The notes: generated by a model from the letters alone, not told the origin. 64,000 nt of DNA from Candidatus Kaiserbacteria bacterium (GCA_016186765.1 JACPLD010000005.1:13785-77784), one strand, 5' to 3'; shown: positions 337 to 24,044, counted from the first letter of the stretch. Translations and numbers: made by a program.

Positions 337-446
337 GCGAGCGTGCGCAAGCGTTTTGGAGTCTTCGCGCAGGCCGATGAGGCCGAGCGGGAGCAAATTT
401 TCAGCAGAAAATTATGCGACTCCAAAATGATTGTGCACGCGAGCAT
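337..446. repeat. copy 1 of a ~100-nt structured palindromic intergenic repeat; conserved core ttcgcgcaggccgatgaggc..agcgggagcaaattttcagcagaaaattatgcgac
   Basis: The core is near-identical to the copies at 2845-2953, 16290-16398 and 23953-24044. Flanking arms gcgttttggagtc/gactccaaaa are complementary, and there is an inner hairpin aattttc-agca-gaaaatt. Confidence 0.8.
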
Positions 447-448
447 AT

Positions 449-823
449 CTACCACCGCCAAAACGTCTTTCGAAACCATTCGCGGAGGGTGGAAGTTGCG
501 TGGATGGGCGCAGAAGTCGGCCGCTCGACAATCACAATGAGCCCCTCCCCTCTTTCCGCAAATCCGTACTGCTCGCGCAGCGTTTCTTCGAGACCGCGAT
601 CGCTCTCGAGCATTTCGATGTCGGCCGAGAGCTGCTGCTGCCGAGCAAGAAGATCGGCACGCTCGAGCTCAGCTTCCGCCTTGCGCGATGCAGATTCGCG
701 CTCTTTTTGAAACACGCCCCACACTCCAGAAGCAGCAAAGAGCGCGAGAGCGGCGAGCGCAAGGAGGCCGAGGCGCTTCAAAAAAAGCCGTGTGGCAGTC
801 TGTCGCTGGTTTCGTGACCACAT
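449..823 (-). CDS. ftsB: FtsB/DivIC-like septum formation initiator (cell division protein)
   Basis: The 124-aa product has an N-terminal TM helix (LGLLALAALALFAASGVWGVF), a coiled coil, and a C-terminal REQYGFAERGE..IVIV motif typical of the FtsB family. Confidence 0.55.
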   Translation of the reverse strand: MWSRNQRQTATRLFLKRLGLLALAALALFAASGVWGVFQKERESASRKAEAELERADLLARQQQLSADIEMLESDRGLEETLREQYGFAERGEGLIVIVERPTSAPIHATSTLREWFRKTFWRW

Positions 824-896
824 GTTGCAATCTTATCACTGACACGATTTGCATTTTTTCCTATTCCCTATACCCTATTCCCTATCACCTACCCAT

Positions 897-1019
897 ATGA
901 GCTTTCTCTTCGACAAGCGCACGAAAAAAGTCATCAATGCCGCATGGGGAGTCATCGCCGTTCTCATCATCATCGGCATGGTTATCTTCTTCGCCCCCGG
1001 CCTCATATACGGCATCTAG
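897..1019 (+). CDS. possible 40-aa small membrane protein
   Basis: The short ORF MSFLFDKRTKKVINAAWGVIAVLIIIGMVIFFAPGLIYGI has one hydrophobic helix and is convergent with the lepA stop. It is not in the ORF track because it is under 60 aa. Confidence 0.2.
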   Translation: MSFLFDKRTKKVINAAWGVIAVLIIIGMVIFFAPGLIYGI

Positions 1020-2791
1020 CTTTCCCGCACTACTTTAAGAAATACCTCGTGAGGTATTTCTACTCTGCCTCGGGCTAACATTTTTTTCTTTCCGCGCTTT
1101 TGTTTCTCGAGGAGCTTCATCTTCCGTGTCACGTCGCCGCCGTAGAGGTAGCCGGTCACATCCTTGCGAAGCGCGTTTAGGCGGCGCGCCGCGATAATGC
1201 GTCCACCTGCTTTCGCCTGGACCTTCAGCACGAAAAGCTGCCGCGGGAGAAGCTTCTCGAGTTTCTCGACTATCGCTTCCGCTTCAGTCTGAAGCCTTCG
1301 ACGGGAGACGATGCGCGTAAACGCGGGCACGGGTTCCTCCGCAATCAAGACATCGAGTCGCACGACATCCGCCTCGCGAAGGCCGACGAGCTCGTAGGAG
1401 AGCGAGGCAAAACCGCTCGAGATGCTCTTCAGCCTGTCGAAAAATGCTCGCATCAATTCTCTGAGTGGCATCTCTGCGGAGATCCGGACTTTTCCATCGG
1501 GAAGAGTCTCTGTATGTCCCACACTGCCCTCGTGCTCATAGAGAAGCTGCGATATGCTGCCCACGTATTGCGCTGGCGTGATGACATGGACGTTGCTCCA
1601 CATCTCGCGTATCCGCTTAGCCCCGCCGTCGTCCGGAAATCGCGCGGGCGAGTAGACTTCTTCTACCGCTCCGTTGATTCGCGTTACCTCGTAGACAGTT
1701 GTCGGCTGCGTCACCACGAGCGCAAGGCCGAACTCTCGCCTTAGACGCTCGATTACGATCTCGAGATGGAGCATTCCCAAAAAGCCGCAGCGGAAGCCCT
1801 TGCCCATGACGCCCGAGCTTTCTTCTTCATACGAGAGAGAAGAATCGGAAAGACGCAGGCGCTCAAGCGATTGTCGCAGAGAGGGCAGATCGTCCTGCGA
1901 CTCCGGATACACTGAGGCCCAAATGACAGGCGTCGGCCGTAGAAAGCCGGGAAGCGCCGGGGCACCTTCTCGCGCAGAGGTGACCGTATCTCCGACCGAA
2001 GTGACACCGGGCTTCTTTATGCCGGTCACGACGTATCCGATCTCCCCTGCGAGAAGCTCGTCGCGCGGAGAGTAGTCGGGAGTAAGTACACCAACCTCGA
2101 GTGCCTTGAACGATTCTTTTGCCGCCGAGAGTGCCAAGGCCTCTCCCGCGCGTAGCCGACCTCCGAAGACGCGTGTGTATATGATGACACCGCGGTGGTC
2201 CGAATATCCGAAGTCAAACACGAGCGCTTGGGTTTTCTCTCCCGTCGCGGGAGGAGGAATTCGCTCAACAATCGCATCGAGAAGAGTTGCGACTCCCTCC
2301 CCTGTCTTTCCCGACGTCTTGAGAACAGACGATTCAGACACGCTAAGAAGGAGCGCGAGCTCGCTCACTATATCGTCCGTTCGCGCAAGTGGCACGTCGA
2401 TTTTCGACACGACAGGAATGACTATTCTCTTCAGATCTTTGGCGACAGAAAGAACAGACAGCGTTTGGGCCTCCACTCCCTGCGTCGCGTCCACGAGAAG
2501 CACGACGCCCTCAACCGCAGAGAGCGCTCGCGATACCTCGTATGAAAAATCAACGTGCCCCGGCGTGTCTATCAAATTGAGCACGTACTCGACGCCGCCG
2601 TTGTGCCACGTCATCCGCACCGGAGCCATCTTGATGGTGATACCGCGCTCGCGCTCGAGCTCCATGCGATCCAGGACCTGCTCTTGCATCCGCCGCGGCT
2701 CGATCGTGCCCGTTATTTCGAGCATGCGATCGGCGAGCGTAGATTTGCCATGATCGATGTGTGCGATGATGCTGAAGTTCCGTATGTTCAT
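1016..2791 (-). CDS. lepA: elongation factor 4 (LepA), translational GTPase
   Basis: The 591-aa product carries the N-terminal G-domain motifs NFSIIAHIDHGKSTLADR and DTPGHVDF, and the C-terminal LepA-specific region YGGDVTRKMKLLEKQKRGKKKM. Confidence 0.95.
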   Translation of the reverse strand: MNIRNFSIIAHIDHGKSTLADRMLEITGTIEPRRMQEQVLDRMELERERGITIKMAPVRMTWHNGGVEYVLNLIDTPGHVDFSYEVSRALSAVEGVVLLVDATQGVEAQTLSVLSVAKDLKRIVIPVVSKIDVPLARTDDIVSELALLLSVSESSVLKTSGKTGEGVATLLDAIVERIPPPATGEKTQALVFDFGYSDHRGVIIYTRVFGGRLRAGEALALSAAKESFKALEVGVLTPDYSPRDELLAGEIGYVVTGIKKPGVTSVGDTVTSAREGAPALPGFLRPTPVIWASVYPESQDDLPSLRQSLERLRLSDSSLSYEEESSGVMGKGFRCGFLGMLHLEIVIERLRREFGLALVVTQPTTVYEVTRINGAVEEVYSPARFPDDGGAKRIREMWSNVHVITPAQYVGSISQLLYEHEGSVGHTETLPDGKVRISAEMPLRELMRAFFDRLKSISSGFASLSYELVGLREADVVRLDVLIAEEPVPAFTRIVSRRRLQTEAEAIVEKLEKLLPRQLFVLKVQAKAGGRIIAARRLNALRKDVTGYLYGGDVTRKMKLLEKQKRGKKKMLARGRVEIPHEVFLKVVRES

Positions 2792-2844
2792 ACGTGAAGT
2801 ATCCTATCCTAGCAGATGCTGGACATATCGCATTCTAACTACAG

Positions 2845-2953
2845 CGAGTCGGATGCGTGCGGTTCCGGGGTCTTCGCGCAGGCCGATGAGGCTTCAGCGG
2901 GAGCAAATTTTCAGCAGAAAATTATGCGACCCAAGGACTGCACGCATCCGCGA
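2845..2953. repeat. copy 2 of the structured palindromic intergenic repeat
   Basis: It has the same core as 361-420, flanked by the long imperfect inverted repeat ggatgcgtgcggttccggggtc / gacccaaggactgcacgcatcc. It lies between the murJ stop and the lepA start. Confidence 0.8.
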
Positions 2954-2958
2954 GTACC

Positions 2959-4656
2959 CTATTGCGGAGACGACGGCCCGATCTCTTCGGCAGATGCTAT
3001 AGGTTGCGCTTGCGGCAGCGGCGCCCTCCAGAGCCGCCCGCGGATCGCGGAAACTGTCTCCAAGTACTCGCGATTATTGAGAAACGCGTACACAAGTACG
3101 GCCCCGCATATTCCGGCGATGCCACCCGCAAGCCCGCGCAGAAAAACCGAGAGCAGCGTCGAAGATAGTGTAAGCGGCCCCACGAGGGTGAGTGTCGCAT
3201 AGGCGATGATGGCTGCGCCGATGCCCGCGAGGACGGCGTGCATGAGAGAAACCTTTATCAACGAAAAGAATCCTCCGAAACGCTGCTCGAAATGGATCAC
3301 AAGTGCCACCGCTGATGCGACAGAGACGAGCGAAAACGCGATCGGGAGTGCCACGATGGAGCTTCCGGGAACGTCATCGAGCCGCAGTACGCGCTCAATA
3401 AAACTCAGTAGGGCGGTGTCGGATAGGGCGGAGGAGAAGCGCGAAGCGAGAACAAGTGTGAGCCCGGTCGAAAGTATCGCGATGAAAAATGGAACGAAGG
3501 TGCGCCCTGCCGCGTAGTAGGCGCGAGTAAGCAACAAGAGCAGGGCCTGCGCCGCAAGCGAGATGGAGAGGAGCGCAAAAACCGCGGCGGTGAGACGCGT
3601 GTCGGTCCAATCGAAGGAACCGCTTCCGAGAACGACGCGCACGATGTGTGCGCGAAGCACCACAATGAGACCCAGCGCGGGAAGCGACCAGAAGAGTATG
3701 TAGCGCGCGGCAGTCGCAACGTACTCGACGAATTCCCGTGTGCGGCCGTTCGCAAGCGCCGAAGCGAGCGTCGGGAATGCGGCAACAGAGTAGGAAGCGC
3801 CGATTACCGAGAGAGGAACACTTGCTAGATTGAACCCAAAGATGTACACCGCGATAGAGCCCACGGAAAGTCCGGAGGCAAGCGAGATCAAACCCGTGAA
3901 CGTAACTTGATTCATCGAGAGCGTGAGTGCGCGCGGGATTGATATCGCCGCCGTCTGCAGCAGTGCGATACCATCTCTAAACTTTGGAAACGAGCGGAAA
4001 AATCCTTCACCCACGATCGAAGGAAGCTGGATCCCTAGGTGAAGTGAAGCGCCGAGAACAACTCCCCACGCTAATCCCACGATCCCGAGGGATGGGTAGA
4101 GCGCGAGAAGCCCGACAATGATGCCGAGGTTATAGAGGAGAGGCGAGATGGCATACAGTAGGTAGCGTCCACGTGTTTGGGTGATGCTCGCGAGAATGTT
4201 GGAGAGCCCCAAAAGAATCGGTTGCAGGAGCATGATGCGCGAGAGCATCGTAAGGCTCTCGTGGTAGCCAAGTGCCAAAAACTGAGGAAAGAGCGCCGCG
4301 ATGAGAGACGGCGCGAGGAATGCAGCGCCGAGAGAGAGGGCCACCGCAAGCGAACTGAAGCCGAGAACGATCGTGTCGATGTAGTCTTTTTGTCGCTCAA
4401 GCGAGCGGCGCGAGAGCTCAGGAATGAGAATGTAAACAGAGACCAAGGAGCCGATCGTGACGAACAGGAAGTCAGGTATGCGGAATGCCGCGTAGTAGAG
4501 GTCGAGCTCGGCTCCAGCGCCGAAGGTATGCGCGAAGAGGCGATCACGCACAAGTGCCAAGAGCGAGGAGAGGAGTGCAGAGATCGCCAAGACGTACACT
4601 GCCGTCTGCAAACCCCGCACCGGAGAAGCGAGTAGACGGAGGGTTTCTCGCATCAT
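2959..4656 (-). CDS. murJ: lipid II flippase MurJ (MviN family)
   Basis: The 565-aa polytopic membrane protein has more than 12 predicted TM segments and a MurJ-like N-terminus (RETLRLLASPVRGL...AFRIPDFLF). Confidence 0.8.
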   Translation of the reverse strand: MMRETLRLLASPVRGLQTAVYVLAISALLSSLLALVRDRLFAHTFGAGAELDLYYAAFRIPDFLFVTIGSLVSVYILIPELSRRSLERQKDYIDTIVLGFSSLAVALSLGAAFLAPSLIAALFPQFLALGYHESLTMLSRIMLLQPILLGLSNILASITQTRGRYLLYAISPLLYNLGIIVGLLALYPSLGIVGLAWGVVLGASLHLGIQLPSIVGEGFFRSFPKFRDGIALLQTAAISIPRALTLSMNQVTFTGLISLASGLSVGSIAVYIFGFNLASVPLSVIGASYSVAAFPTLASALANGRTREFVEYVATAARYILFWSLPALGLIVVLRAHIVRVVLGSGSFDWTDTRLTAAVFALLSISLAAQALLLLLTRAYYAAGRTFVPFFIAILSTGLTLVLASRFSSALSDTALLSFIERVLRLDDVPGSSIVALPIAFSLVSVASAVALVIHFEQRFGGFFSLIKVSLMHAVLAGIGAAIIAYATLTLVGPLTLSSTLLSVFLRGLAGGIAGICGAVLVYAFLNNREYLETVSAIRGRLWRAPLPQAQPIASAEEIGPSSPQ

Positions 4657-4662
4657 GAAAAC

Positions 4663-6939
4663 CTATCTCCTCGAAGGAGCGAACGGATCGCGACCAGACT
4701 GAATTTTTTCTATAATGTCCGCAAGTGCAGCATCATTTGGATTGGTGAGAGCAACTATCCTCAAGACCCGGAGTGCGTCTTCCTTCCGGTCAAGCCGATA
4801 GTACGAAAGTCCCAAGAGAAAGAGCGCGTTCGCGTAATTTTGCTCGAACGCGACCGCACGCTCGAACGCTCTCGCGGCGTTCTCGTACTCCCCACTTGCG
4901 TAGAGTATCGTCCCGTAGTTGTACCAGCCGAGCGGATCCTGTGCGGCGACCTGTACGACTGCCTCCGCATGCTGTTTAGCTTCCGCTAGCGCGTTCGCGC
5001 GCGCGTGGATCTGCGAGAGGAGAAAGTGCGCGGCGGCGAGATCAGGCTTAATACCGATCGCAGTTTCGAGATTCGTGCGAGCCGCCGTATCGTCGCCACG
5101 CGCAAGATCGAGTTGGGCGAGACCGAGATACGGAAGTGGGTTCGTAGGACTCATCGAAGCTGCCTCGCGATAGGCATCATGAGCCGCCTGTTCCGCTCCC
5201 GAAACACCTGCACCGGCGAGCTCGCCGTAGAGTCGCGCGAGCGTGAGCCAGTTCTGGTAGTCTCGACTTTCAATGTTCACGGCGGCGAGTCCATGCTGGA
5301 TCGTCGCATTCAGTGTCCCTTGCAGCTCAGCCTGCGCCTCCGAACTCCCATCAGATTGGCTTACAAGAGCTGCGAGCTGCAAAAGACCAAGCTCAACACC
5401 TGCACGATGCGCGCGGTCGCTCCCCGGCAAAACGAGAAGTGCGAGCGCGATCGATTTCGACGCCTTGCCGATATCTTGCGTTCCCGAGTAGAGCACGACC
5501 GCGCGATTCACGAGCATGTCCGAAACGAGCGCGCGCGTCGACTGCACACCACCGAAAAGGAGAACGAGGCCCGAGAGCGATAGCACGGAGGCGGCAACTT
5601 TTCCCTTCCAAGATTCCCACGAAAGAGAGAAACGAGAGCGCGAGACCGCGCCCGTGAGGAGCTCCTCTCCGATCATGGCACCAAAGATAAGAAATGTGAG
5701 GAGGGATAGTGCCGGGCCGGGAACGTAGAAGATGTGATAGGTCGTGAGAAAGACAGCAGCGAGAACGAGCGCAGCGCGTATGCGAGAGGCATTTCCCGCA
5801 TCACGAAAGAGCCGCACGAGACGGGAGAGGAGTGCAAGGGTCACGGCGAGCCACGCGACAAGACCCGCTATGCCCGTCGTCACGAAGGAGGTTGGGATAA
5901 AACCAACGCCATAGTAAAAGTCTGTGTTCCAAAATTGCGTCGTATTCACCGAGAGCGGTTTGTAGCGGCCCCACTCGCGAGGAAATGTGTTGGGGCCGGA
6001 ACCGAAGAAAATCTGCGTAGGTTCCGCGAACACTTCGCGACCAATCGCGAAGGTGCCCTGCCACGAAGGTCGCACCTCTACTTGCGTTATCTGAAGCGGC
6101 GAGGGGAGCTTTCGCTGGATAAGCGTTCCCCCGAAGTAGGGAGCAAGCGAAAGGAGCGCAAAGAGGAGAAAGAGCAGGGCGACTCCATGTCCGCCGAAAC
6201 GCGGGCTTGCTGGTTGCGCTCGGAAGCGAAAGAGCGCGTAGAGCAAACTCGCACCTCCGAAGGCAAGCCACACGTCTGCATAGTTGATGACAAGGAGAAG
6301 CGCGAAAGAGCCGAGCGTGACGACAATCCCCACATAGCGCCACGCGCCGCTACAGACCGACGTTGGCAAGAGTATGAGCGAAAGAAAAAGCGCAAGCGAG
6401 AGATAGATGCCAAGATCATGCCAACTGCCGACGATAGAGCTCGCCGGGAATTCGAGCACGCCGCCAAAGGTGAATGTAGGGTACGCAAGATGCACAGACT
6501 GAACCGCGAGCACGACGAGCGTACCCGTAAGAAGAAGACGCAGGGCGAGTGCGGGCCTCTCTCTTTGCGCGCCGAGTACTGTTGCCGAGAGAAAGAGCGC
6601 CGCGTACCAAATTGCGAACGTGACAACCGTGTCCTGCCCACTACCGTCACCAATAAACGATTCCCACGACGGTCCCGCGACGAGTGCAGAAACGAGGTAC
6701 GCAAGCGGAATAAGAAGCGCCGCGATGAGAAGCGGGCTTTTCGGAATATGGAATTCGGAATCCCGTAGAGACATGACGATCCACGCGAGGAAGCCAACGG
6801 GTGCAACAACAACTGCGAGGAGTACCTTCGCCTGTGCGACGCCCACCCATGACACGGGGATAAAGAAAAAAGGAGTGAGCAAGAAGAGGAGGAATGCCGA
6901 CCATCGAGCTACCGCTTCTGCTCCTGCAAAATACTGCAT
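4663..6939 (-). CDS. O-antigen ligase (Wzy_C)-like polytopic membrane protein with C-terminal TPR repeats
   Basis: The product has many TM helices followed by a soluble C-terminal TPR-like region (YNYGTILYASGEYENAARAFERAVAFEQNYANALFLLGLSYYRL). I re-set the start to the internal Met (MQYFAGAE..) because the ORF-track 5' extension to 7023 overlaps the 3' end of RNase P RNA. Confidence 0.7.
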   Translation of the reverse strand: MQYFAGAEAVARWSAFLLFLLTPFFFIPVSWVGVAQAKVLLAVVVAPVGFLAWIVMSLRDSEFHIPKSPLLIAALLIPLAYLVSALVAGPSWESFIGDGSGQDTVVTFAIWYAALFLSATVLGAQRERPALALRLLLTGTLVVLAVQSVHLAYPTFTFGGVLEFPASSIVGSWHDLGIYLSLALFLSLILLPTSVCSGAWRYVGIVVTLGSFALLLVINYADVWLAFGGASLLYALFRFRAQPASPRFGGHGVALLFLLFALLSLAPYFGGTLIQRKLPSPLQITQVEVRPSWQGTFAIGREVFAEPTQIFFGSGPNTFPREWGRYKPLSVNTTQFWNTDFYYGVGFIPTSFVTTGIAGLVAWLAVTLALLSRLVRLFRDAGNASRIRAALVLAAVFLTTYHIFYVPGPALSLLTFLIFGAMIGEELLTGAVSRSRFSLSWESWKGKVAASVLSLSGLVLLFGGVQSTRALVSDMLVNRAVVLYSGTQDIGKASKSIALALLVLPGSDRAHRAGVELGLLQLAALVSQSDGSSEAQAELQGTLNATIQHGLAAVNIESRDYQNWLTLARLYGELAGAGVSGAEQAAHDAYREAASMSPTNPLPYLGLAQLDLARGDDTAARTNLETAIGIKPDLAAAHFLLSQIHARANALAEAKQHAEAVVQVAAQDPLGWYNYGTILYASGEYENAARAFERAVAFEQNYANALFLLGLSYYRLDRKEDALRVLRIVALTNPNDAALADIIEKIQSGRDPFAPSRR

Positions 6940-6959: not shown

Positions 6960-6987
6960 GCAAAATCCCCCTTGCGGGGGATTTTGC
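6960..6987 (-). terminator. GC-rich hairpin immediately 3' of rnpB (possible terminator or processing stem)
   Basis: The sequence gcaaaatccccc-ttgc-gggggattttgc forms a perfect 12-bp stem with a 4-nt loop. It is followed, in minus-strand sense, by AUGUGCUAUACUCUU. Confidence 0.4.
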
Positions 6988-7320
6988 CTGCGAAGTAAGC
7001 CGGATTCTGTCGGGGACAGTCATCTATCTGGGATCGTCGTTGCCGACAACCTCAAGCGGCTCTTCCAACAGCGATTTCAATTGAGAATCACGGTTGGACA
7101 CGGCCTTGCACGCAGGTAGGAATTTTGCCGTTTCATTTTCGCCTTTCGACGAAACCACTCCCGAAGGAGTTCTAGCCTCTCGGCATCGACGTTTCTGTTC
7201 GCATCCCTATCCTCTCGGACGACGGGCGTTACCCGCTACCCTGCTATCCGCCAGCTGGCGGATGCGTGTCCGGACTTTCCTCCCCTGCTTTCGCAGGAGC
7301 GACTGCCTAACGCAGGTGTA
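6987..7320 (-). ncRNA. rnpB: RNase P RNA (bacterial type A-like), boundaries approximate
   Basis: The minus-strand sequence contains GGGGAGGAAAGUCCGGAC (P4 5' strand; E. coli has GGGGAGGAAAGUCCGGGC). It also has GCAGGGUAGCGGGUAACGCC, CAAGGCC, and the 3' block GACUGUCCCCGACAGAAUCCGGCUUAC (E. coli has GACUGUCCACGACAGAACCCGGCUUAU). A P1 pairing CCUGCG/CGCAGG is present. Confidence 0.85.
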
Positions 7321-7354
7321 CAGTATACCAAATTGTGCGCAGCAAACCAAGCAG

Positions 7355-9721
7355 TTAGACAATTTCGCACGTCCCACCCGCGCAGGCCAATTCTTTCGCC
7401 TGCTCGGTTTCGTCGGTGCGTTCGTAGATGATAAGTTTCGAGTAGTCCACCTGTGGGAATTGTGCTACACGTTGCTCGTAGGTTTTCTTATCGATTGCTT
7501 CATAGGGAGCTAAGCGGTAGACATGATTAGAGCGGGGCAGGAACGAAAGGCCGCCGATGATGTCCCAGTTCTCGTACAGCCACGCGACGACTTGCACCCA
7601 CTCTTCTTCTCCCACCGAGATCGTCGCCGAAGGATTATGCTCGGTGAAATTCAATTTCACCGTCTTCCAGTACTCAAGCTGCTCAATTGCCGAGAGATCA
7701 TCCTTGAACACGGAGCCGGCAGGCGCCTTTACCGGAAACTCCAGCACATACGTGTTCGCCTCGCCCGCGACCTGGCCCACTTCAGGGTTATGCGGAACAC
7801 CTTGGTCGCGCACCATCTTGTAGAGCGAGTCGGTCGCAGAGATGCGGATGCGGCGGATGTAATAGTGCGAGTGGCGCGGGTGCACGCCTGAAGAGCAATC
7901 AAAGGTCTGCGATACAGTACCCGAGGGCTTCACGCACGTAATCGAGTGCGACGGATTGATGCCGAAGCGTTTCGCGTATATCTCGTTCGTCTTGAGGGCG
8001 GCCTGCCGCATTTTGCGAAGCGTCGAAGGATTGCGAACTGCCGGGCTGTCCCACTGCCCCGTAATCGAAACCCCCAGCAGCCGCTCGGCTTCGCAATTTT
8101 TCTTCCAGTCCTCCGATATGTAACGGAAATTCGTGAGCGTTGACTGATACGTGCCGAGGAGCGTCGCGAGTTTCGTTTTCCGGACGAGCGATGTTTCCGT
8201 ATCGTATGGACGCGCGATCACCTCTGAGAGATTGCAGAACTGGTGCGACTGCAGAATGATCTCCGCGCATGGGTTTGTGCCGAGCTGACCGATGAACCCG
8301 TTCTTCTTACCGTATTTTTTGCGCAGGTACTCAAGACGCCGTTTGGGCAAGGTCTTGGGAAGTGAGCCGCGGTTGAAGATGCCCCGCTCTCCTGTGCCGC
8401 TCTTCATCAAAGCAACCCATTCGTCCATCAACTCGGCGTTCGTCGGCTTCTCCTCGTAGACAGCGGAGTTGTTGGCGACAGAGCGGTACGGATCGGTGAG
8501 GAAAAATTGCCCCTTTTTGGCGTCGCGGATCTCAACATCGTCCAGGTCCGACAGCGAGATCATTGCCGTGCGGCGCACACCGCCCGCAACGACGCATTCG
8601 CCGATCTTGCAGATGATGTCGTGCGCGTCGATGTTGCGAAGGCGCCTTCCTTGTCGCTTCAAGATCCGCTCACGTGCGAAGGATAGAAGCGAGCGGAGCG
8701 GCTCGGGTCCCGAGGCTTTGCCCCCCATCGTTTTGAGGCGTGCGCCCGCAGGGCGAATAAGCGAGAAATCAAAATCGATGTCTTTACCGCCATACCAGCA
8801 CTTCAGACCTAAGGTGAGTGCATCGCACCAGCCCTCTTTCGTGTCGGCCACAACGTGCATGGGCAACTTTTCTCCGGTTTGCTTTTCGATTTGCGGGAGC
8901 TGCTGAACGTTGTAACTTTCAACGGCGTAGCCGACACCGCAGCCCTGCATCGAGAGATACATGATCTCGGCAAAATCTTCGAGCTTGCGCGGCGCGATGA
9001 AGCTGCAGTTGTAGAAGCATGTGTTGCACTTGCGCGCTGGATCTCCAGAAAATTGCATTGCTCGCATGCTAGGCATCACCTCCTGGTTGAGGATCGCCTC
9101 ACGCACCTCCGCGTATTCACGGGCTTTTAGTTTTTCGCCGAGATTCTCGCGCATGAAATTCACGTAGCGATCAACCGTCTCGATCCACGTCTCGCGGCGC
9201 TGCTCGCTCTCGATCCATCGCGCGTAGGTGCGGAGATACACGAATTCACCCAAAGGGTTATTCTTGAAATATTTTTTACTCTCTTCCGAGAGTTTTCGCA
9301 CGTGCTCCGGCACTTCTCCCTGCTCTTTGCGGATCTTCGAGCGCTCCGCGCGGTACAAAATGTATGCTTTCGAGGTGGCGACGTAATCCGAAAGCATCAG
9401 TTGTTTTTCAACCTCATCTTGGCAACCTTCCACCGTGGGCAAAAAATTCTTATAGGTCTTTGCAATGCGCATCATCTCTCCCGCAACCTTGTGCGCGACG
9501 ACGAGCGCCTCAAGAGGTGTGCCTTCATTGCTCGCTTTCATCGCCTTTTCGATCACCGCGACAATCTTTTGGAACTCGAACGGTACGATGCGTCCGTCAC
9601 GTTTTTGAATTTGCGGGAGATATTTTTTGTACACACGCATCGCGACGCCATCTCCTATGATGCTCACACGCGCCGCAGAGGAGCGCGTTTTCGACCTTTC
9701 CCGCACTGTTGTTTTTGCCAT
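7355..9721 (-). CDS. ribonucleotide reductase large subunit, probably class II (B12-dependent NrdJ-like), with N-terminal ATP-cone
   Basis: The 788-aa product has an ATP-cone (VIKRDGRIVPFEFQKIVAVIEKAM), the NPCAEIIL active-site motif, and a C-terminal CAGGTC cysteine pair. No NrdB partner and no glycyl-radical motif are present. Confidence 0.75.
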   Translation of the reverse strand: MAKTTVRERSKTRSSAARVSIIGDGVAMRVYKKYLPQIQKRDGRIVPFEFQKIVAVIEKAMKASNEGTPLEALVVAHKVAGEMMRIAKTYKNFLPTVEGCQDEVEKQLMLSDYVATSKAYILYRAERSKIRKEQGEVPEHVRKLSEESKKYFKNNPLGEFVYLRTYARWIESEQRRETWIETVDRYVNFMRENLGEKLKAREYAEVREAILNQEVMPSMRAMQFSGDPARKCNTCFYNCSFIAPRKLEDFAEIMYLSMQGCGVGYAVESYNVQQLPQIEKQTGEKLPMHVVADTKEGWCDALTLGLKCWYGGKDIDFDFSLIRPAGARLKTMGGKASGPEPLRSLLSFARERILKRQGRRLRNIDAHDIICKIGECVVAGGVRRTAMISLSDLDDVEIRDAKKGQFFLTDPYRSVANNSAVYEEKPTNAELMDEWVALMKSGTGERGIFNRGSLPKTLPKRRLEYLRKKYGKKNGFIGQLGTNPCAEIILQSHQFCNLSEVIARPYDTETSLVRKTKLATLLGTYQSTLTNFRYISEDWKKNCEAERLLGVSITGQWDSPAVRNPSTLRKMRQAALKTNEIYAKRFGINPSHSITCVKPSGTVSQTFDCSSGVHPRHSHYYIRRIRISATDSLYKMVRDQGVPHNPEVGQVAGEANTYVLEFPVKAPAGSVFKDDLSAIEQLEYWKTVKLNFTEHNPSATISVGEEEWVQVVAWLYENWDIIGGLSFLPRSNHVYRLAPYEAIDKKTYEQRVAQFPQVDYSKLIIYERTDETEQAKELACAGGTCEIV

Positions 9722-16289: not shown

Positions 16290-16398
16290 GCGAGCGGGCA
16301 TGAGCGTTTTTGGAGTCTTCGCGCAGGCCGACGGGCTTCAGCGGGAGCAATTTTTCAGCAGAAAAATATGCGACTCCAAAACGCTTACGCCCGCGAGT
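16290..16398. repeat. copy 3 of the structured palindromic intergenic repeat
   Basis: The core has a compensatory change in the inner hairpin (atttttc-agca-gaaaaat versus aattttc-agca-gaaaatt). The arms are gagcgtttttggagtc / gactccaaaacgctt. It lies between the groEL stop and the start of the large secreted protein. Confidence 0.8.
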
Positions 16399-19068: not shown

Positions 19069-19176
19069 CGCCGACCGAAGAGCCTCTCCTTCTTGGCGGC
19101 GGTCGCGTCTGACGCGACCGCCGCCCTTTCTTTTGACACGTTGACTTCCGCGACCACCTATGCTACATTAGCACCG

Positions 19177-19464: not shown

Positions 19465-21276
19465 ATGATTTCTGATTCCCCCACTCCTTCCTCACCCGGA
19501 GAAGACCTCAAAACAAAACTCTTTAGGCACCGGAGCACTCCGTTGCTTCTGCGCTTTGAGAAAACGCATCGTGCTCTCTCTCCCGGCGAGCGCCTTACAG
19601 TTTTCACGCTCGGGAGTCTCCTCGTCTTGAGTGCTCTCGCGATATTTGCAGGCCTCAGCGGCGCTGCGGGCGTAGAGATTCCCTCCCGTGGAGGAACGCT
19701 CTCGGAGGGCGTAATGGGTCCCGTCCGATTCGTGAATCCACTGCTTGCGCTCTCCGGCCCCGACAAGGACCTGACTGTCCTAGTCTACTCTGGTCTCATG
19801 CGCGCTCTGCCCTCGGGAGAGCTTATCCCCGACCTTGCTAAAAGCTACGATATATCGGAGGACGGCACCGTATACACGTTCACTCTGCGCGATGGCATCA
19901 CTTTTCATGACGGAACGCCGTTGACTGCCGCCGACGTACTTTTTACGGTGGAACGCGCGCGAAATCCAGATTTCAAGAGCGCGCGACGCGCAGACTGGGA
20001 GGGAGTCGCTGTCGCCGCACCGGATCCGCGCACAGTCGTGTTCACGCTCCCCCACGCCTATGCGCCCTTCCTTGAGAACACGACGCTCGGCATCTTGCCG
20101 AAAACTTTGTGGAACGACGTATCGGCAGAAGAATTTCCGTTCCATCCCCTGAACACACGCCCCATTGGAAGCGGACCATACCGCTACAAAGATCTGTCTG
20201 AAAACTCAACCGGTTCGATCACACGGTACGAACTGTCGTCATTCAACAACTTCGCGCTCGGCCGGCCATACCTCGAAAAGATTACGTTCCTCTTCTTCCC
20301 GAGCGAGGAGGATCTTCTCGCGGCGTTCAACACCGGAAGAATTGGTAGCATGGCGGGTGTCTCGCCCCTCTCCGTAGAAGATGTCACAAGACACAACACC
20401 ACGATCGCCCGCGCCACACTGCCCCGCACGTTCGCCGTCTTCCTGAACCAGAGCAAGAACGCACTGCTCGCTGAAGGAGCAGTACGCGCTGCTCTCGATG
20501 CCGCGATCGACAAAGAGCACGTCATCGACGAGGTGCTGAAAGGGTTTGGCGTCGCGCTTGAAAGCCCCATTCCACCCCAGCTGCTTGGCTCCATCTCGAG
20601 GGCGGTGCCCGAGCCACTCACGGGAAGCGCCGAAGTAAGACACGAAGAAAGTGGGAAAGCGGAAGATGCGCGTGACATTCTCTCCCGCGGAGGCTGGATC
20701 TTCGACAAAGAAGACAGTGTATGGACAAAGAAAAAGACGACGCTCGAGTTCACGCTCGTAACAGCTGACGAGCCGGAGCTCTCCGCGACTGCAGAACTTC
20801 TTGCAAGCATGTGGCGAGACGCGGGTATTAAAGTAAATGTACACGTCTACCCACTCTCGGAGCTCAACTCCATCGTAATTCGGCCGCGGGAGTATGAAGC
20901 GATTCTCTTCGGAGAGGTCGTCGGCCGTTCGCTGGATCTTTTCGCCTTCTGGCACTCCTCGCAGCGCAACGACCCCGGCTTAAATCTCGCACTCTATACA
21001 AATAGCAAAGCGGATGCACTCCTCACCCGAGCACGCGAAACGACGAGCAGGCGCGAGCGCGTGAGGCTCTATGAGCAGTTCGAAGACATCGTAAAAAGCG
21101 ACATGCCTGCCGTTTTCCTCTACGCACCGGAGTTCATCTATATTGTTCCAGAGGTGCTGCAGGGTGTCGCGCTCGGAGCACTTACCGATCCTTCAGAGCG
21201 TTTTCTCAACGTTCATGAGTGGTATACCGACACCGAGCTCGTGTGGAACATATTTACGAACAAGATTTCAGAATAA
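19465..21276 (+). CDS. ABC transporter substrate-binding protein, family 5 (OppA/DppA-like)
   Basis: The 603-aa product has an N-terminal anchor and SBP_bac_5 features (TLSEGVMGPVRFVNPLLA...DGTVYTFTLRDGITFHDGTPLTAADV). Confidence 0.8.
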   Translation: MISDSPTPSSPGEDLKTKLFRHRSTPLLLRFEKTHRALSPGERLTVFTLGSLLVLSALAIFAGLSGAAGVEIPSRGGTLSEGVMGPVRFVNPLLALSGPDKDLTVLVYSGLMRALPSGELIPDLAKSYDISEDGTVYTFTLRDGITFHDGTPLTAADVLFTVERARNPDFKSARRADWEGVAVAAPDPRTVVFTLPHAYAPFLENTTLGILPKTLWNDVSAEEFPFHPLNTRPIGSGPYRYKDLSENSTGSITRYELSSFNNFALGRPYLEKITFLFFPSEEDLLAAFNTGRIGSMAGVSPLSVEDVTRHNTTIARATLPRTFAVFLNQSKNALLAEGAVRAALDAAIDKEHVIDEVLKGFGVALESPIPPQLLGSISRAVPEPLTGSAEVRHEESGKAEDARDILSRGGWIFDKEDSVWTKKKTTLEFTLVTADEPELSATAELLASMWRDAGIKVNVHVYPLSELNSIVIRPREYEAILFGEVVGRSLDLFAFWHSSQRNDPGLNLALYTNSKADALLTRARETTSRRERVRLYEQFEDIVKSDMPAVFLYAPEFIYIVPEVLQGVALGALTDPSERFLNVHEWYTDTELVWNIFTNKISE

Positions 21277-21286
21277 CGCACATACT

Positions 21287-23143
21287 ATGATGGTACCGGA
21301 CCAACATTCTCACTCGCGCATGGGATCACCCCCGCATACGCGCCCGCGCCCCGGGAGGGGCGCTCTCCGCGGCGCGAGATACGCGCGGCCGCGGCGGCCG
21401 CACGGCGGCCGGCTACGCCTCGAGCACCGCCCCAGCGCCCCGCGCTCGGCTGCTCCCGCGATACCCGAACCAGCGGGAGATACCGTTCGCGTCATCCCGC
21501 TTGGAGGTGTCGAAGAGATTGGCCGCAACATGACCGCTGTTGAGATAGGCCCCGACATCTTCATTCTCGATTGCGGCTTCCAGTTCCGCGAGGAGGAAAC
21601 ACCGGGCGTCGACTACATTCTCCCCAACACGGGCTACCTCGAGGAGCGGCGACACAAAATTCGCGGGCTCCTCATCTCACACGGCCACCTCGACCACATC
21701 GGCGGCATTCCCTACATCATCGATCGCATTGGAAACCCGACGATCTACACCCGCCGCCTCACGGGCAAGATGATACGAAAGCGGCAAGAAGAGTTCGCGG
21801 GAGGCTCGCAGGTCCAGATCCGCGAAGTGGAGAGCGACGAAGTAATAAAGCTTGGGAACGCAACCGTGCGCTTCTTTTCGGTAACGCACACTGTGCCCGA
21901 TTCGATGGGCATCATCATCGAAACGCCGTGGGGAGATGTCGTCTTCACGGGGGACATCAAGCTCGACCACGAGAACGGCGAGCCGACCGAAGAAGAGCAC
22001 CAGGAATTCTCCATCTTCAAGAAACGCAACGTGCTTCTTCTCCTCATGGATTCGACGAATGTCTGGCAACCTGGCTTCTCGATACCGGAATCGACCGTGT
22101 ATCGCACGCTTGAGGGAATCGTCAAAGATTCCAAGGGCCGCCTCATCGTCGCGATGTTCGCCTCGCACTTGGAGCGCCTTATCCGTGTCATGCACTTCGC
22201 AGAGAAGTATGGCAAGAAAGTCGTTATCGACGGCCGCTCGATGCGCACCAACATCGAGATCGCGCGCGAGCTTGGGCTCATCAAGTACAAAGATGACACC
22301 GTGATCGCGGTCGAAGACCTCGGCCACTTCCCGCCGGAGAAGATCATCATTCTCGCAACCGGCGCGCAGGGAGACGAGTTCGCCTCGCTCGCACGCATCG
22401 GCGACAAAACACACAAATATATCCGCCTCACACCAACAGACACAGTGGTCCTCTCCTCTTCCGTCATCCCCGGCAACGAGCGCGCCGTGCAAAAACTCAA
22501 AGACAACCTCTCGCGCCAAGGCGCGCATATCATCACCTACCACGCTTCCGATGTGCACGCCTCGGGCCACGGCAACCGCGAAGAGGCTGCATGGATTCAC
22601 CGGCAGGTCAGGCCGAAATTCTTCATCCCCGTGCACGGCTACCACTACATGCTTCGCGTGCATGCCGACCTCGCTATTGAGCAGGGTGTCGATCCAAAAA
22701 ACATTGCGATCCCCGACAACGGCTCCATCATCGAGATACAAAAGGGTGAGAAGATGGTGAAGCTGCCGATGAAAGCTCCCTCGGAGCTTCGCGTTGTCGA
22801 AGGGCACACCGTGACAGAGCTCTCGGACGTGCTGATGCGCGACCGAAAAGCGCTCGGACAGGAGGGATTTTGCGTCGTCGTGGCAACGATTGATAGACGC
22901 ACCGGCCGCCTTCACAAATCTCCCGACATAATCTCCCGCGGCTTCGTCTACCTCCGCGACAACAAGGAATTGATGGACCAGACGCGCCTCATCATCCGCA
23001 AATCGGTGGAACAGTCGCTTCGCAATCCGCGCTCTGCCGATCTCGACGCCGCCCGCGACGATTTAGCTGAGAGCGTCTCTCGCTTCCTTCTACAGAGGAC
23101 AATGAAGAGACCAATTGTCATTCCCGTAATCGTTTCTGTTTAG
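21287..23143 (+). CDS. rnj: ribonuclease J (metallo-beta-lactamase/beta-CASP) with an Arg/Pro-rich N-terminal extension
   Basis: The core has VRVIPLGGVEEIGRNMTAVEIG, the HxHxDH motif (HGHLDHIGG), and beta-CASP and C-terminal domains. I set the start at the first ATG after the upstream gene; the ~60-aa RP-rich leader is unusual. Confidence 0.8.
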   Translation: MMVPDQHSHSRMGSPPHTRPRPGRGALRGARYARPRRPHGGRLRLEHRPSAPRSAAPAIPEPAGDTVRVIPLGGVEEIGRNMTAVEIGPDIFILDCGFQFREEETPGVDYILPNTGYLEERRHKIRGLLISHGHLDHIGGIPYIIDRIGNPTIYTRRLTGKMIRKRQEEFAGGSQVQIREVESDEVIKLGNATVRFFSVTHTVPDSMGIIIETPWGDVVFTGDIKLDHENGEPTEEEHQEFSIFKKRNVLLLLMDSTNVWQPGFSIPESTVYRTLEGIVKDSKGRLIVAMFASHLERLIRVMHFAEKYGKKVVIDGRSMRTNIEIARELGLIKYKDDTVIAVEDLGHFPPEKIIILATGAQGDEFASLARIGDKTHKYIRLTPTDTVVLSSSVIPGNERAVQKLKDNLSRQGAHIITYHASDVHASGHGNREEAAWIHRQVRPKFFIPVHGYHYMLRVHADLAIEQGVDPKNIAIPDNGSIIEIQKGEKMVKLPMKAPSELRVVEGHTVTELSDVLMRDRKALGQEGFCVVVATIDRRTGRLHKSPDIISRGFVYLRDNKELMDQTRLIIRKSVEQSLRNPRSADLDAARDDLAESVSRFLLQRTMKRPIVIPVIVSV

Positions 23144-23925
23144 GCAATCCGCCACCTCCCTTTCTCGGAAACGATAAGCCCATCCCGCGCGAGCGAAGCG
23201 AGTGCCCTATCGAACTTCCCTATATAGTGGTTTCGTAAACCACTAATATTCTTGCTGCTCGCAAGTGCGCGAATGATTGCGCCGCGGAGTTGGCGGAACG
23301 AGCCCTCGAATTTTGACTGGCGGGTGTAGTGTGCGCTGCGGTGATTGTTGCGAACACCGGAGCGCTTGAGATACGCCCCATAATCCATAAGCGCCCAGTG
23401 CCATTCCCTCCGTCCGCCACCTGGCGGATTGTCCTCCGCCGCTGAGGCTGCCAGTGGAAGAATTTCCGAATCGCTTATTGCAGTCTTTTGCAAAATACTA
23501 GAATAGAAATTGTGGATGTAGGCGGTTCGGATGTTGGTTTCCAAGAGAATGTCGGGTTCGTTGAAGGCAAAGACACGAATAGCACGAGCTGTGTAATCTC
23601 CTACTCCAGAAAGTGCACGGAGTGATTGATAGTCGCGCGGAACATTTCCACCATGCTTCTCAACAACCTCGATTGCTGCGTCACGCAAATATTTTGCACG
23701 TCTGTTGTAGCCCAGCCCATTCCAGACTTTGAGAACGTCGACAAAATGAGACCTTGCCAAATGGCGGACCGTTGGGAACGCCTTCAAAAATTCTTTGTAC
23801 TTCGGGATCACCCGATGCACCTGCGTCTGCTGCAGCATCAATTCAGAAACGAGGATCTTGTACGGATGATTCGTCCGACGCCACGGCAAATCGCGTCGTC
23901 CCTGTTCTTTCCAATAATTCCACAC
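23140..23925 (-). CDS. HhH-GPD DNA glycosylase (MutY/endonuclease III-like, no Fe-S cluster)
   Basis: The product has WYWKEQGRRDLPWRRTNHPYKILVSELMLQQTQV and the HhH-GPD motif (LRALSGVGDYTARAI). The ORF-track extension to 24078 runs through repeat copy 4, so I propose a GTG start near 23925. The exact start is uncertain. Confidence 0.65.
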   Translation of the reverse strand: MWNYWKEQGRRDLPWRRTNHPYKILVSELMLQQTQVHRVIPKYKEFLKAFPTVRHLARSHFVDVLKVWNGLGYNRRAKYLRDAAIEVVEKHGGNVPRDYQSLRALSGVGDYTARAIRVFAFNEPDILLETNIRTAYIHNFYSSILQKTAISDSEILPLAASAAEDNPPGGGRREWHWALMDYGAYLKRSGVRNNHRSAHYTRQSKFEGSFRQLRGAIIRALASSKNISGLRNHYIGKFDRALASLARDGLIVSEKGRWRIA

Positions 23926-23952
23926 ACCGGAGCGGAAGGAAGCGAGCGGCAG

Positions 23953-24044
23953 CGCGTGTGTTCGAGGAGACTTGCGAGTGCGACGGCGCGAGCGGGAGGA
24001 AATTTTCAGCAGAAAATTATCCGTGCTCCCAGAACACATACGCT
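23953..24044. repeat. copy 4 of the structured palindromic intergenic repeat (more diverged)
   Basis: The core gagcgggaggaaattttcagcagaaaattat is conserved. The arms are gcgtgtgttcg / cagaacacatacgc, with ggag...ctcc closing. Confidence 0.7.

Follow-up and report, generated by a model that had tools for sequence, protein, structure and literature searches.

A family of branched intergenic repeats in CPR bacteria with a fold conserved on one strand only

Results

A repeat in four intergenic spacers

The window (the whole 64-kb stretch of Candidatus Kaiserbacteria DNA analysed here) contains four copies of a repeat of approximately 110 nt, all on the plus strand and spaced 2.5-13 kb apart (Table 1). 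As the original prediction had it, each copy lies just 3' of a minus-strand gene: a DivIC/FtsB-like gene (a call based on a weak Pfam match), murJ, groEL and a HAD hydrolase gene. The right end of the element is separated from the stop codon by 3-9 nt in all four cases. The downstream neighbours are a tRNA gene, lepA, and genes for a peptidoglycan-binding protein and a DNA glycosylase.

Pattern scans, a covariance model and folding all support the existence of the four copies. A 30-nt core pattern (up to three mismatches) finds three of them versus 0.00 expected in shuffled sequences, and a scan with a 14-nt hairpin motif recovers all four. When run over the whole 64 kb with filters off, the covariance model retrieves exactly these copies, which score 81-91 bits; no other match exceeds 15 bits. 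They fold alike, with z-scores of -5.8 to -9.1. Their locations had been given correctly, but the folds define slightly wider extents (those of Table 1). The near-identical core that had been proposed for all copies holds for copies 1-3, which are 84-95% alike over the aligned core blocks and differ in their outer arms, but not for copy 4, which represents a different subfamily with a diverged hairpin A region (83% over a 41-nt core). Alignment and folds also uphold the claim that the arms differ in sequence yet remain self-complementary, and the paired substitution reported in copy 3 is real (an A-U to U-A swap in the inner hairpin relative to copies 1 and 2).

Table 1. Coordinates of the four repeat copies, the predicted parts of copy 1 and the flanking features in the window
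Feature	Position	Strand	Details
tRNA gene	227-297	-	Flanks copy 1
Copy 1, whole element	337-444	+	Fold -63 kcal/mol, z -9.1; model match 339-443, 91.3 bits
Copy 1, outer stem, 5' arm	337-363	+	Predicted fold
Copy 1, basal GC-GA-GC	337-342, opposite GC-GA-GC 439-444	+	Tandem G·A loop
Copy 1, hairpin A	365-392	+	5-bp helix UUCGC/GCGGG, U·G pairing first; internal loop GCA/GA; 4-bp GGCC/GGCC; variable loop
Copy 1, hairpin B	393-417	+	GCAAAUUUUC [AGCA] GAAAAUU-A-UGC; AGCA loop 403-406, bulged A 414
Copy 1, outer stem, 3' arm	418-444	+	Predicted fold
DivIC/FtsB-like stop codon	449-451	-	Flanks copy 1
lepA start	2791		Flanks copy 2
Copy 2	2844-2955	+	81.1 bits; AGCA loop 2913-2916
murJ stop codon	2959-2961	-	Flanks copy 2
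Copy 3	16290-16398	+	90.3 bits; AGCA loop 16357-16360
groEL stop codon	16404-16406	-	Copy 3 lies 5 nt past it
Copy 4	23942-24053	+	81.8 bits; junction GGAGAC...GUGCUCC; hairpin B base pair G-G/C-C
HAD hydrolase stop codon	24059-24061	-	Copy 4 lies 5 nt past it
HhH-GPD glycosylase gene			Copy 4 lies upstream of it

The element is not a canonical terminator, as already suggested: in the four window copies no U-tract follows it on either strand. The plus-strand tails read GCGAGC-AUAUCU and similar, and the minus-strand tails GCUCGCU-AGAGUC, -GUAGUU, -UUGUGC and -UCCUUC. A terminator scan lists no element as a whole hairpin, the sole overlap being a chance 5-bp stem inside copy 3.

The family and its common architecture

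Further members were gathered with pattern scans and the covariance model, which gives a family total of 70 copies (61 distinct) in Kaiserbacteria, other Parcubacteria/Paceibacterota and Saccharibacteria. The 53 unique copies obtained from genome and metagenome scans have an identical fold. Across the family the element is approximately 105-150 nt long. Its outer stem comprises 15-41 bp, with a median of 25 bp, and frequently includes a symmetric G·A purine loop close to the base; its apex is a tight three-way junction bearing hairpins A and B. Hairpin A has a G(N)A/GA purine internal loop and a terminal loop free to vary in sequence; its first pair is U-G in 43 of the 60 distinct copies, and the pairs of its helix covary (GC/CG swaps). 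Hairpin B carries an AGCA-type tetraloop and a bulged A. Mean column identity is 65%; invariant columns are confined to the core, the arms being the variable part.

The basal GC-GA-GC is kept in Kaiserbacteria-type copies, while those of the L054 type have GC-GAA-GC on both arms. What looks like a GCGAG...GCGAG 'direct repeat' is part of the fold (GC-GA-GC/GC-GA-GC), and in L054-type copies it is internal to a longer stem.

None of the window copies matches any of the 4227 models of Rfam 15 at the gathering score. At E <= 10 the only match to copy 1 is to a generic hairpin (MIR6297, 17.8 bits versus a cut-off of 114), and the elements in seven further loci have no match at E <= 1. The repeat had not been recognised as a known RNA family, and these searches, which yield no curated match, agree. 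It is a previously uncatalogued family, so far found only in CPR/Patescibacteria, and by the usual criteria it qualifies as an orphan structured RNA motif defined by covariation.

Selection on structure and its strand

Selection on structure had been proposed from the window copies; the family as a whole, together with a set of six orthologous copies lying between the same two genes, makes the case far more strongly than four copies could. Paired cells amount to 94.6% versus 71.0% after shuffling, and double changes occur in 30 of the 32 pairs. The covariation score is 0.614, compared with 0.19 for shuffled alignments and 0.07-0.10 when pairing partners are slid. None of 500 shuffles reaches any of five covariation measures, and the slid-partner controls are 6-9 times lower. 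Within the orthologous set, nine of 45 pairs are compensatory, with G-U intermediates on one strand only, the GGGAG strand. Random mutation of the arms in copies elsewhere would have counted against selection on structure; these copies keep their pairing, an outcome that favours structure.

The two strands are not equivalent. Folding of the GGGAG strand gives 184 G-U pairs and 12 A·C mismatches, against 41 and 67 for the complement. It is the more stable strand in 50 of 53 copies, by a mean of 11.5 kcal/mol, and DNA folding parameters give a difference in the same direction. The GGGAG strand is the plus strand in the window, antisense to the abutting genes, as it is in most copies of the family.

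The fold is therefore under purifying selection on the GGGAG strand only, so that the functional molecule should be a single-stranded nucleic acid of that polarity. The conserved U·G pairs, the G-U share (approximately 8% of pairs), the loops of sheared-GA type and the AGNN-like loop indicate that this molecule is probably RNA; single-stranded DNA of the GGGAG strand fits the folding data equally well. Pairing on one strand argues against a plain mRNA hairpin, a terminator or the neutral decay of a palindrome. An mRNA-stabilising element, one of the options originally offered, is also disfavoured because the selected strand is antisense to the genes.

Placement relative to genes and promoters

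As in the window, the element directly follows a stop codon in most loci. In approximately 21 copies no more than 25 nt separate the 3' end from the stop codon of a gene on the opposite strand, to which the six-member orthologous set is additional; only six copies abut a same-strand gene. Gene calls in loci outside the window were made with a crude longest-ORF method. In the six-member set the element fills the spacer (approximately 130 nt) of two co-directional genes, starting 6 nt after the stop codon and ending 12-17 nt before the start codon.

Read by eye, the sequence beyond copies 2 and 1 shows -10-like boxes, belonging to the following unit, at distances of 5-17 nt (TAGAAT, for example, 5 nt from copy 2). 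By the same kind of reading, TATAAT lies 6 nt away in L132 and the rnpB promoter approximately 35 nt from an element in L019. Because of these boxes and the identities of the neighbouring genes, the copies look like elements at transcription-unit boundaries, and their earlier placement inside operon spacers is doubtful.

Occupancy of orthologous sites

The murJ/lepA junction that houses copy 2 has orthologous copies in L132 and in L092 (with a truncated left arm), and L019 retains only a left-arm remnant there. Copy 3, behind groEL, has an ortholog in L138, and L137, L139 and L140 lack the element at this site; relatives without it have a short plain hairpin at the same spot. Hairpin B of the L138 copy is GC-rich (GCGUCCCGCG/CGCGGGA-A-CGC), having been completely re-paired with G-C, and keeps the AGCA loop and the bulged A, further evidence of selection at a fixed site. 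Copy 4 has an ortholog with degenerate arms in L010/L126, and the copies most closely related to it follow the RNR gene in L019 and L132.

The repeat is probably of use to the cell, since it fills whole spacers in compact genomes and persists at orthologous sites.

Discussion

We tentatively favour, at somewhat less than an even chance, the view that these repeats constitute a new family of structured boundary elements, acting at transcription-unit ends in CPR bacteria as a single strand, probably of RNA. The element would fold in GGGAG-strand transcripts that approach the neighbouring gene from its 3' side, whether these arise as divergent or pervasive antisense transcripts from an adjacent promoter or by read-through from a convergent gene. 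It might then act as a polar, factor-recognised barrier resulting in termination, processing or stabilisation, with the conserved three-way junction as the putative recognition site of the factor. The family has reached numerous sites, and single copies are lost or decay one site at a time, like REP-type repeats. Some results count against such a transcribed barrier. No sigma-70-like promoter is present on the GGGAG strand beside any window copy, no U-tract follows the element on either strand, the spacer of the six-member set is so tight that an antisense promoter could fit only within coding sequence, and the truncated copies, solo-arm remnants and empty sites of relatives show the element to be dispensable.

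The alternative that survives best, which we think unlikely, is that the repeat is non-autonomous mobile DNA moving via a single-stranded DNA intermediate, of REPIN or IS200/IS605-derived type. An enzyme supplied in trans would recognise the folded GGGAG strand at the junction, and strand-specific pairing would reflect transposition competence. This accommodates a dispersed, multi-copy family with subfamilies, in which truncated copies and solo-arm remnants occur, the element has no promoter or terminator of its own, and strand-specific folding holds with DNA parameters. It also accommodates occupancy that differs among close relatives (GroEL 86-93% identical) and the wholesale swapping of hairpin B at orthologous sites, which suggests conversion between copies or re-insertion. 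Also in keeping with mobility, the seven L054-type copies, approximately 90% alike and three of them from one metagenome, lie in unrelated flanks; no target-site duplication is visible around them, however, and the family includes no identical or near-identical copies. Variable arms around a conserved centre are moreover the reverse of REP, REPIN and MITE anatomy, in which the enzyme reads conserved ends, and old orthologous copies that remain approximately 95% paired, with wobbles on one strand only, would require site selection or constant conversion. In IS200/IS605-type elements the active strand lies on the lagging-strand template, which, assuming the usual gene-strand bias, is the sense strand for co-directional genes, the opposite of that seen here. 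Two weak tests for an enzyme were also negative: a tblastn search of approximately 1.1 Mb of incomplete genome sequence with an approximate IS200 TnpA query gave nothing better than E = 1.2, and the 30 window proteins scanned include no member of a transposase family and so no Y1 transposase. The REP/RAYT and MITE-like origins originally put forward are both unsupported, the former on anatomy, the latter because conserved terminal repeats and target duplications are both absent.

Could the element instead work in the sense transcript? Its reverse complement still forms a hairpin (-40 to -50 kcal/mol), which would then end transcription or bar the way to 3' exonucleases just after the stop codon, the role proposed for REP hairpins and for terminators without a U-tract. 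Copies do lie 0-12 nt after stop codons at transcription-unit ends, the complement strand of the window copies folds well (z-scores -4.2 to -6.4), and relatives lacking the element have the plain hairpin behind groEL. Canonical U-tract terminators, in addition, are no commoner across 1-20 kb than in shuffled sequence (26 found versus 22.4 expected). We nonetheless consider this quite unlikely. On the sense strand the wobbles become A·C mismatches and the purine loops pyrimidine loops, an asymmetry opposite to that expected from known coding-strand mutation biases, and motif polarity does not flip with gene orientation. There is no U-tract, a plain hairpin function leaves the conserved three-way junction without a reason, and in L138 a separate GC-rich hairpin follows the repeat behind groEL. 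In the six-member set the next gene starts so soon beyond the element that transcription must read through it.

Independent genes for trans-acting small RNAs, each with its own promoter and releasing a two-hairpin RNA of approximately 55 nt from a long processing stem, would explain the RNA-like conservation (stems that vary, loops and bulges that do not, and a closing U·G pair), the core shared across phylum-level CPR groups and the coexistence of subfamilies in one genome and between genomes, like ancient paralogues. They are improbable, however. Neither promoter nor terminator is found, similar copies have nothing in common in their flanks, the gaps to the adjoining genes are as small as 6-17 nt, individual copies are dispensable, and the tight stop-codon placement and fixed orientation would lack an explanation.

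Returning to the boundary-element reading, a more ambitious form of it, rather unlikely in our estimation, is a strand-specific CPR device (a three-way-junction RNA or template-strand DNA), located at the 3' ends of genes in antisense orientation and recognised by a factor conserved in CPR bacteria, that would stop or process transcription entering genes from behind; or else the repeat may serve as substrate for an enzyme not yet described, one that reads a branched fold of a single strand and not terminal repeats. We know of no described bacterial counterpart of a polar, U-tract-independent, factor-dependent insulator.

CPR/Patescibacteria represent a large share of bacterial diversity and are ultra-small, with tiny genomes and few known regulators. 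To our knowledge, hardly any non-coding element has been reported from this group. The motif is well supported, is common to Parcubacteria and Saccharibacteria and is ready for inclusion in RNA family catalogues and for use in annotation and as a lineage marker. Selection on the antisense strand is not explained by ordinary terminators, mRNA stabilisers or known REP/MITE repeats. Solving the role of the repeat could reveal how CPR bacteria delimit transcription units or handle antisense transcription, or a new enzyme specific for single strands. Even were it only a REP-like selfish repeat, no family of that kind had been described in CPR before, although its general interest would then be modest.

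Comparison with known systems

REPs and REPINs are similar in being short palindromic extragenic repeats, mostly at gene 3' ends and in tens of copies per genome, which are long-lived, vertically inherited and fold as a single strand, with copies gained, lost and decaying. A REP, however, is 20-40 nt long with a GTAG or CGTC tag and conserved arms read by the enzyme, and a REPIN consists of two inverted REPs around a less conserved spacer. The CPR repeat has no such tag, its arms vary and covary, and it is the central three-way junction that is conserved. Its copies are 60-95% alike and span phylum-level groups, whereas REPs form a near-identical population around a master sequence. REPs also come with a dedicated Y1 (HUH) transposase, encoded once per genome and usually REP-flanked; no RAYT turned up in the approximately 1.1 Mb searched here. 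For a MITE, conserved terminal inverted repeats, target-site duplications or a parent IS would be expected, and none is seen.

Integron attC sites are also imperfect palindromes (approximately 60-140 nt) directly behind stop codons and in a single orientation; the strand that functions in folded form is the bottom one, antisense to the gene, structure is maintained despite sequence variation, and a branched apex is possible. The R''/R' boxes (RYYYAAC...GTTRRRY) are absent from the CPR repeat, the ends of which read AGCGAGC...GCGAGY. It is flanked by syntenic housekeeping genes (groEL, murJ, lepA, RNR) and not cassettes, with no array and no integrase, and the apex is its most conserved part but the least conserved in attC.

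Intrinsic or 'I-shaped' terminators likewise place a stable hairpin a few nucleotides past the stop codon where a transcription unit ends, the spot at which relatives have their plain hairpins. The stem of the repeat is 3-5 times longer and is not followed by a U-tract, its branched core is conserved, and its pairing is selected antisense to the gene that would be terminated.

ERIC, Correia/NEMIS and other MITE-like elements are scattered through transcribed intergenic DNA as imperfect palindromes of 100-150 bp, and their hairpins, when transcribed, can be RNase III substrates or affect the expression of neighbouring genes. Unlike the CPR repeat they have conserved terminal inverted repeats (and Correia TA target duplications), are restricted to a genus and lack covariation and a strand-specific wobble pattern.

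A retron msr-msd is a single ncRNA locus that has a1/a2 repeats and a branching G and neighbours a reverse transcriptase gene. The repeat is multi-copy beside housekeeping genes, and no reverse transcriptase domain occurs among the window proteins scanned; all that the two have in common is a long hairpin under selection on the strand that complements the transcript.

Finally, orphan motifs of the Rfam RF03xxx type resemble the repeat in being defined only by covariation and conserved loops, and the multi-copy, antisense-biased distribution of the CPR repeat is unusual for cis-regulatory motifs.

The window copies and their fold

The original prediction of a common core in four intergenic stretches was borne out. 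A 30-nt core pattern with up to three mismatches gave 3 finds against 0.00 expected, and a pattern search located the inner-hairpin motif TTTTCAGCAGAAAA in all four copies, which a repeat finder also grouped independently (families D3, D5 and D7). With all filters off, a covariance model run over the whole 64 kb returned exactly four matches, all on the + strand and scoring 81 to 91 bits, and no further copy above 15 bits. Repeat-finder matches at 29458 and 48223 were rejected as extra copies: they lie within coding sequence and lack the core. The table lists the copies together with other features of the window and of the numbered loci (L004, L019 and so on) that we collected from genomes and metagenomes for comparison.

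The window copies adopt one common fold (z-scores -5.8 to -9.1). Its outermost layer is a 2-bp closure (GC/GC) followed by a symmetric GA/GA loop; next come a stem of about 22 bp and a three-way junction, with hairpin A and hairpin B (GCAAAUUUUC-AGCA-GAAAAUU-A-UGC) at the apex. We call the strand whose pairing is kept the GGGAG strand; in the window this is the + strand.

The conserved features are structural and not sequence-level. The 5-bp helix of hairpin A opens with U·G pairs (U-G is the first pair in 43 of 60 copies), and beyond it lie a G(N)A/GA purine loop, three to four covarying pairs and a loop that varies freely. In hairpin B the retained features are a bulged A on its 3' side and its loop, mostly AGCA (variants are AGUA, AGCG, AGUG, AACA and GACA). 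Its stem is fully replaceable, passing from A/U-rich to G/C-rich at L122, L132, L139 and the orthologous groEL site in L138; architecture and bulged A are unaltered in these variants, as is the AGCA loop in L138 and L139. Since orthologous and paralogous stems swap to G-C with loop and bulge kept, the A+T-rich segment is not a promoter, an IHF-type site or another double-strand protein site. At the stem base GC-GA-GC faces GC-GA-GC in Kaiserbacteria copies; in the L054 type, a second lineage, GC-GAA-GC faces GC-GAA-GC inside a further 5-bp helix. The GCGAG motif is paired within the stem, so that what looks like a 'direct repeat' belongs to a purine loop inside the fold and is no target duplication.

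A hammerhead, twister or other self-cleaving ribozyme was dismissed: the copy 1 loop GAUGA is not conserved, only one or two junction bases are unpaired and no ribozyme model matches. A small peptide or type I toxin was likewise rejected on inspection, the sole reading frame, in copy 1, being lost in copies 2 to 4.

Element copies, sites and other features. Extents of copies 1 to 4 are taken from the fold; the first four promoter entries are our own reading of the sequence.
Feature	Locus	Position	Strand	Remarks
Copy 1	window	337-444	+	
Copy 2	window	2844-2955	+	
Copy 3	window	16290-16398	+	
Copy 4	window	23942-24053	+	
-10 box TAGAAT	window	5 nt from copy 2	gene strand	
-10 box TAGATT	window	17 nt from copy 1	gene strand	ahead of tRNA
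-10 box TATAAT	L132	6 nt away	gene strand	
rnpB promoter TTGATT-16-TACATT	L019	~35 nt away	gene strand	
murJ-lepA site				full in window and L132; L092 copy with left arm truncated
murJ-lepA site	L019	1865-1885		left-arm remnant AGCGAGCCGGGCGTGAGC only, next to murJ stop
RNR-rnpB site				filled in L019 and L132; empty in window
ftsB-tRNA site				filled in window; tRNA inverted in L092
ftsB-tRNA remnant	L092	6055-6066		CCGCTCGCT, directly before inverted tRNA gene
groEL site				filled in window and L138; empty in L137, L139 and L140
HAD site				filled in window and L010 only
Ddl site				filled in L137 only
Plain G+C-rich hairpin	L138	11790-11830		CGCAGCCGCCC-AAGT-GGGCGGCTGCG; separate, ~40 nt past the element behind groEL
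RNase P RNA gene	window	6981-7318	-	37 nt after stop of class II ribonucleotide reductase (RNR); no terminator found between the two
Likely rnpB promoter TTGGTT-17-TATACT	window	within 7319-7357		starts 4 nt after RNR stop
SAM riboswitch	window	28079-28175	+	62 bits; immediately upstream of metK (28214-29266)
30-nt repeat TATTGCAGTCTTTTGCAAAATACTAGAATA (family D8)	window	23476-23505, 38937-38966, 39224-39253		80-97% identity; two copies just upstream of adjacent small ORFs 38646-38954 and 38936-39241 (-); could be a shared promoter or operator
Low-G+C island	window	36001-38000		0.43 against ~0.55 elsewhere; ORFs without Pfam match; may be foreign DNA
Six tandem 144-nt (48-aa) Cys-rich repeats	window	41913-42863	+	in ORF 41682-43568 (628 aa, no Pfam match); 64-76% DNA identity to reference copy
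12-nt Gln-rich repeats	window	43279-43365		after the Cys-rich repeats
Giant ORF, 2442 aa	window	44035-51363	-	in locally G+C-rich stretch (0.59-0.61)

Distribution of the family

The GroEL of the window is identical to a protein that NCBI assigns to Candidatus Kaiserbacteria bacterium. Scanning species-representative genomes with the pattern GGGAGNAANTTTTCAGCAGAAAA gave 13 true copies and 2 chance matches; the true copies belong to Kaiserbacteria (6), Saccharibacteria (5), the 'Parcubacteria group' (1) and Paceibacterota (1). When combined with looser pattern scans of metagenomes, these searches identified at least 62 loci with the element and at least 53 unique copies. The fold is shared by all 53, with an outer stem of 15 to 41 bp (median 25) except in L092 and L108, where it is truncated or broken (9 and 4 bp). 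In Saccharibacteria the junction bears one additional hairpin. A covariance model, R1, found at least 70 copies in the collected loci, 61 of them distinct, and its gains include second, more diverged copies without the search pattern (L074:481, L065:6133, L122:8259 and L132:7911). A control search of 74 loci outside the family yielded one additional true copy (L021) and otherwise weak matches of 19 to 30 bits, which arise because these loci had been chosen for a hairpin-B-like pattern.

The loose pattern also caught a perfectly palindromic repeat, GGGGGAGAAACTTTTC-TAGA-GAAAAGTTTCTCCCCC (L070, L085, L101, L124, L130, L131 and others). This is a separate family, unrelated to the element, and recurs in human-gut and other metagenome contigs.

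The element had not originally been recognised as a known RNA family, and no Rfam 15 model fits it in the window or in 11 loci, at gathering or permissive thresholds. It was not found in the literature by topic or by literal sequence, and the single match among viral contigs is unrelated. The element is a new family of structured elements that extends across the candidate phyla radiation (CPR; Patescibacteria).

Selection on one strand

The claim of selection on structure stands, with covariation far above both controls. In a model-based alignment 94.6% of pair cells are standard-paired, compared with 71.0% after shuffling, and in 30 of 32 pairs both partners have changed. Covariation scores 0.614 in the real alignment, 0.19 after shuffling and 0.07 to 0.10 with partners slid, and none of 500 shuffles reached any of the five measures used. 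An independent MAFFT/RNAalifold run gave a concordant picture.

The two strands are not equivalent. Folding the 53 unique copies to minimum energy gave 184 G-U pairs and 12 A·C single mismatches on the GGGAG strand, compared with 41 and 67, respectively, on its complement. The GGGAG strand is the more stable in 50 of the 53 (mean gap 11.5 kcal/mol), a preference that keeps its direction under DNA parameters, and it is this strand that bears the U·G pairs and the conserved purine loops. A neutral palindrome or cruciform would predict symmetric strands. Mutation bias is rejected as the origin of the wobble asymmetry: the ratio, about 15:1, far exceeds known strand biases, and deamination, to judge from its known bias on coding and leading strands, would produce an asymmetry of opposite sign. 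A control in which ordinary gene-end hairpins of these genomes were compared for stability on the sense and antisense strands was discarded, 70-nt windows being too noisy for a clean statistic. As real terminators should, the clearest U-tract examples (after the window genes that end at 55368 and 44035) favour the sense strand. These results show purifying selection on the fold in one of the two strands, at fixed orthologous sites too.

Position and orientation relative to genes

Annotation agreed with the flanking genes originally named (DivIC/FtsB-like, MurJ, GroEL and HAD hydrolase). Their stop codons lie 3 to 9 nt from the element's right edge, and every copy is antisense to the gene that ends there. 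On the downstream side lie a tRNA, lepA, a peptidoglycan-binding protein and a glycosylase. The copies had been placed inside operon spacers, which is doubtful: by our reading, -10 boxes of the next unit lie beside copies 1 and 2 and beside elements in L132 and L019. The elements therefore appear to mark transcription-unit boundaries, with the exception of the L004 set described below. A promoter scan found no sigma-70-like promoter on the GGGAG strand adjoining any window copy. As originally stated, the element is not a canonical terminator, a U-tract being absent after it on both strands. The genome does contain sigma-70 promoters of the ordinary kind, along with a few canonical terminators, for example at 19095-19125 and after the genes ending at 55368 and 44035.

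Across the collected loci, where genes were called crudely as longest ORFs, an opposite-strand stop lies within 25 nt of the element 3' end in about 21 copies, and a same-strand stop lies within 25 nt of its 5' end in 6; three of these 6 sit between convergent genes and show both arrangements. Direct reading shows an orthologous set of six (L004, L011, L048, L050, L097 and L112) to be antisense. Here the element begins 6 nt past a stop (...FIIKFT-stop) and ends 12 to 17 nt short of an ATG (MSELFA...), both on the opposite strand, and both reading frames are backed by synonymous differences between species. In this set 9 of 45 pairs show compensatory changes, with many wobble intermediates (C-G/U-G, G-U/A-U/G-C), all on the antisense strand. 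Orientation is more mixed in low-GC Parcubacteria copies; the polarity of the motif itself is not flipped in any copy. The element thus sits at the 3' ends of genes and tends to be antisense to them.

Evolution at individual sites

Syntenic relatives were identified by blastx and GroEL look-ups. The murJ-lepA site of L019, considered as an empty site, proved to be a deletion remnant. The solo arms left in L019 and L092 suggest that the palindromes promote deletions and inversions. In the loci with an empty groEL site, just a short plain hairpin without a U-tract lies right after the groEL stop. Copy 4 resembles the copies at RNR sites in other genomes more closely than it does copies 1 to 3 of its own; the subfamilies therefore predate these species. 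The family disperses, persisting for long at some sites and being lost or decaying at others.

No target-site duplication or target motif was found, filled and empty RNR-rnpB, groEL, HAD, ftsB-tRNA and Ddl sites being too diverged for junctions to be defined. There were no identical or near-identical copies, and weak tests found no transposase or reverse transcriptase.

Possible function and comparison with known systems

We infer that the selected molecule is RNA because of the U·G/G-U usage, the sheared-GA-type loops and the AGNN-like loop; single-stranded DNA of that polarity is the other option. Most observations are best accommodated by a putative polar boundary element. It would fold in GGGAG-strand transcripts heading toward the 3' end of the abutting gene, which might come from divergent firing of the adjacent promoter, pervasive antisense initiation or read-through from convergent genes, and it would be recognized via its conserved junction. 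Such a role would account for where the element lies, which way it points, why it has no promoter of its own, why single copies are dispensable and why the core is conserved. L004-type sites, which have no obvious source of GGGAG-strand transcripts, argue against it.

A mobile repeat of the REPIN type, moving as single-stranded DNA, would explain the dispersal and turnover, but its anatomy, the selection at fixed sites and the strand expected all misfit. A hairpin acting at the 3' end of the sense transcript would suit the position, but the strand asymmetry contradicts it. Small RNA genes acting independently would need promoters, and none was found; the packing is also too tight for them.

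The family resembles several known systems: REP/REPIN repeats in lifestyle, integron attC sites in having the folded strand antisense to the preceding gene just past its stop, and orphan structured RNA motifs in the type of evidence. Each of these misses at least one tested defining feature. In kind, we class the element with the structured repeats interspersed in bacterial genomes or with the orphan RNA motifs.
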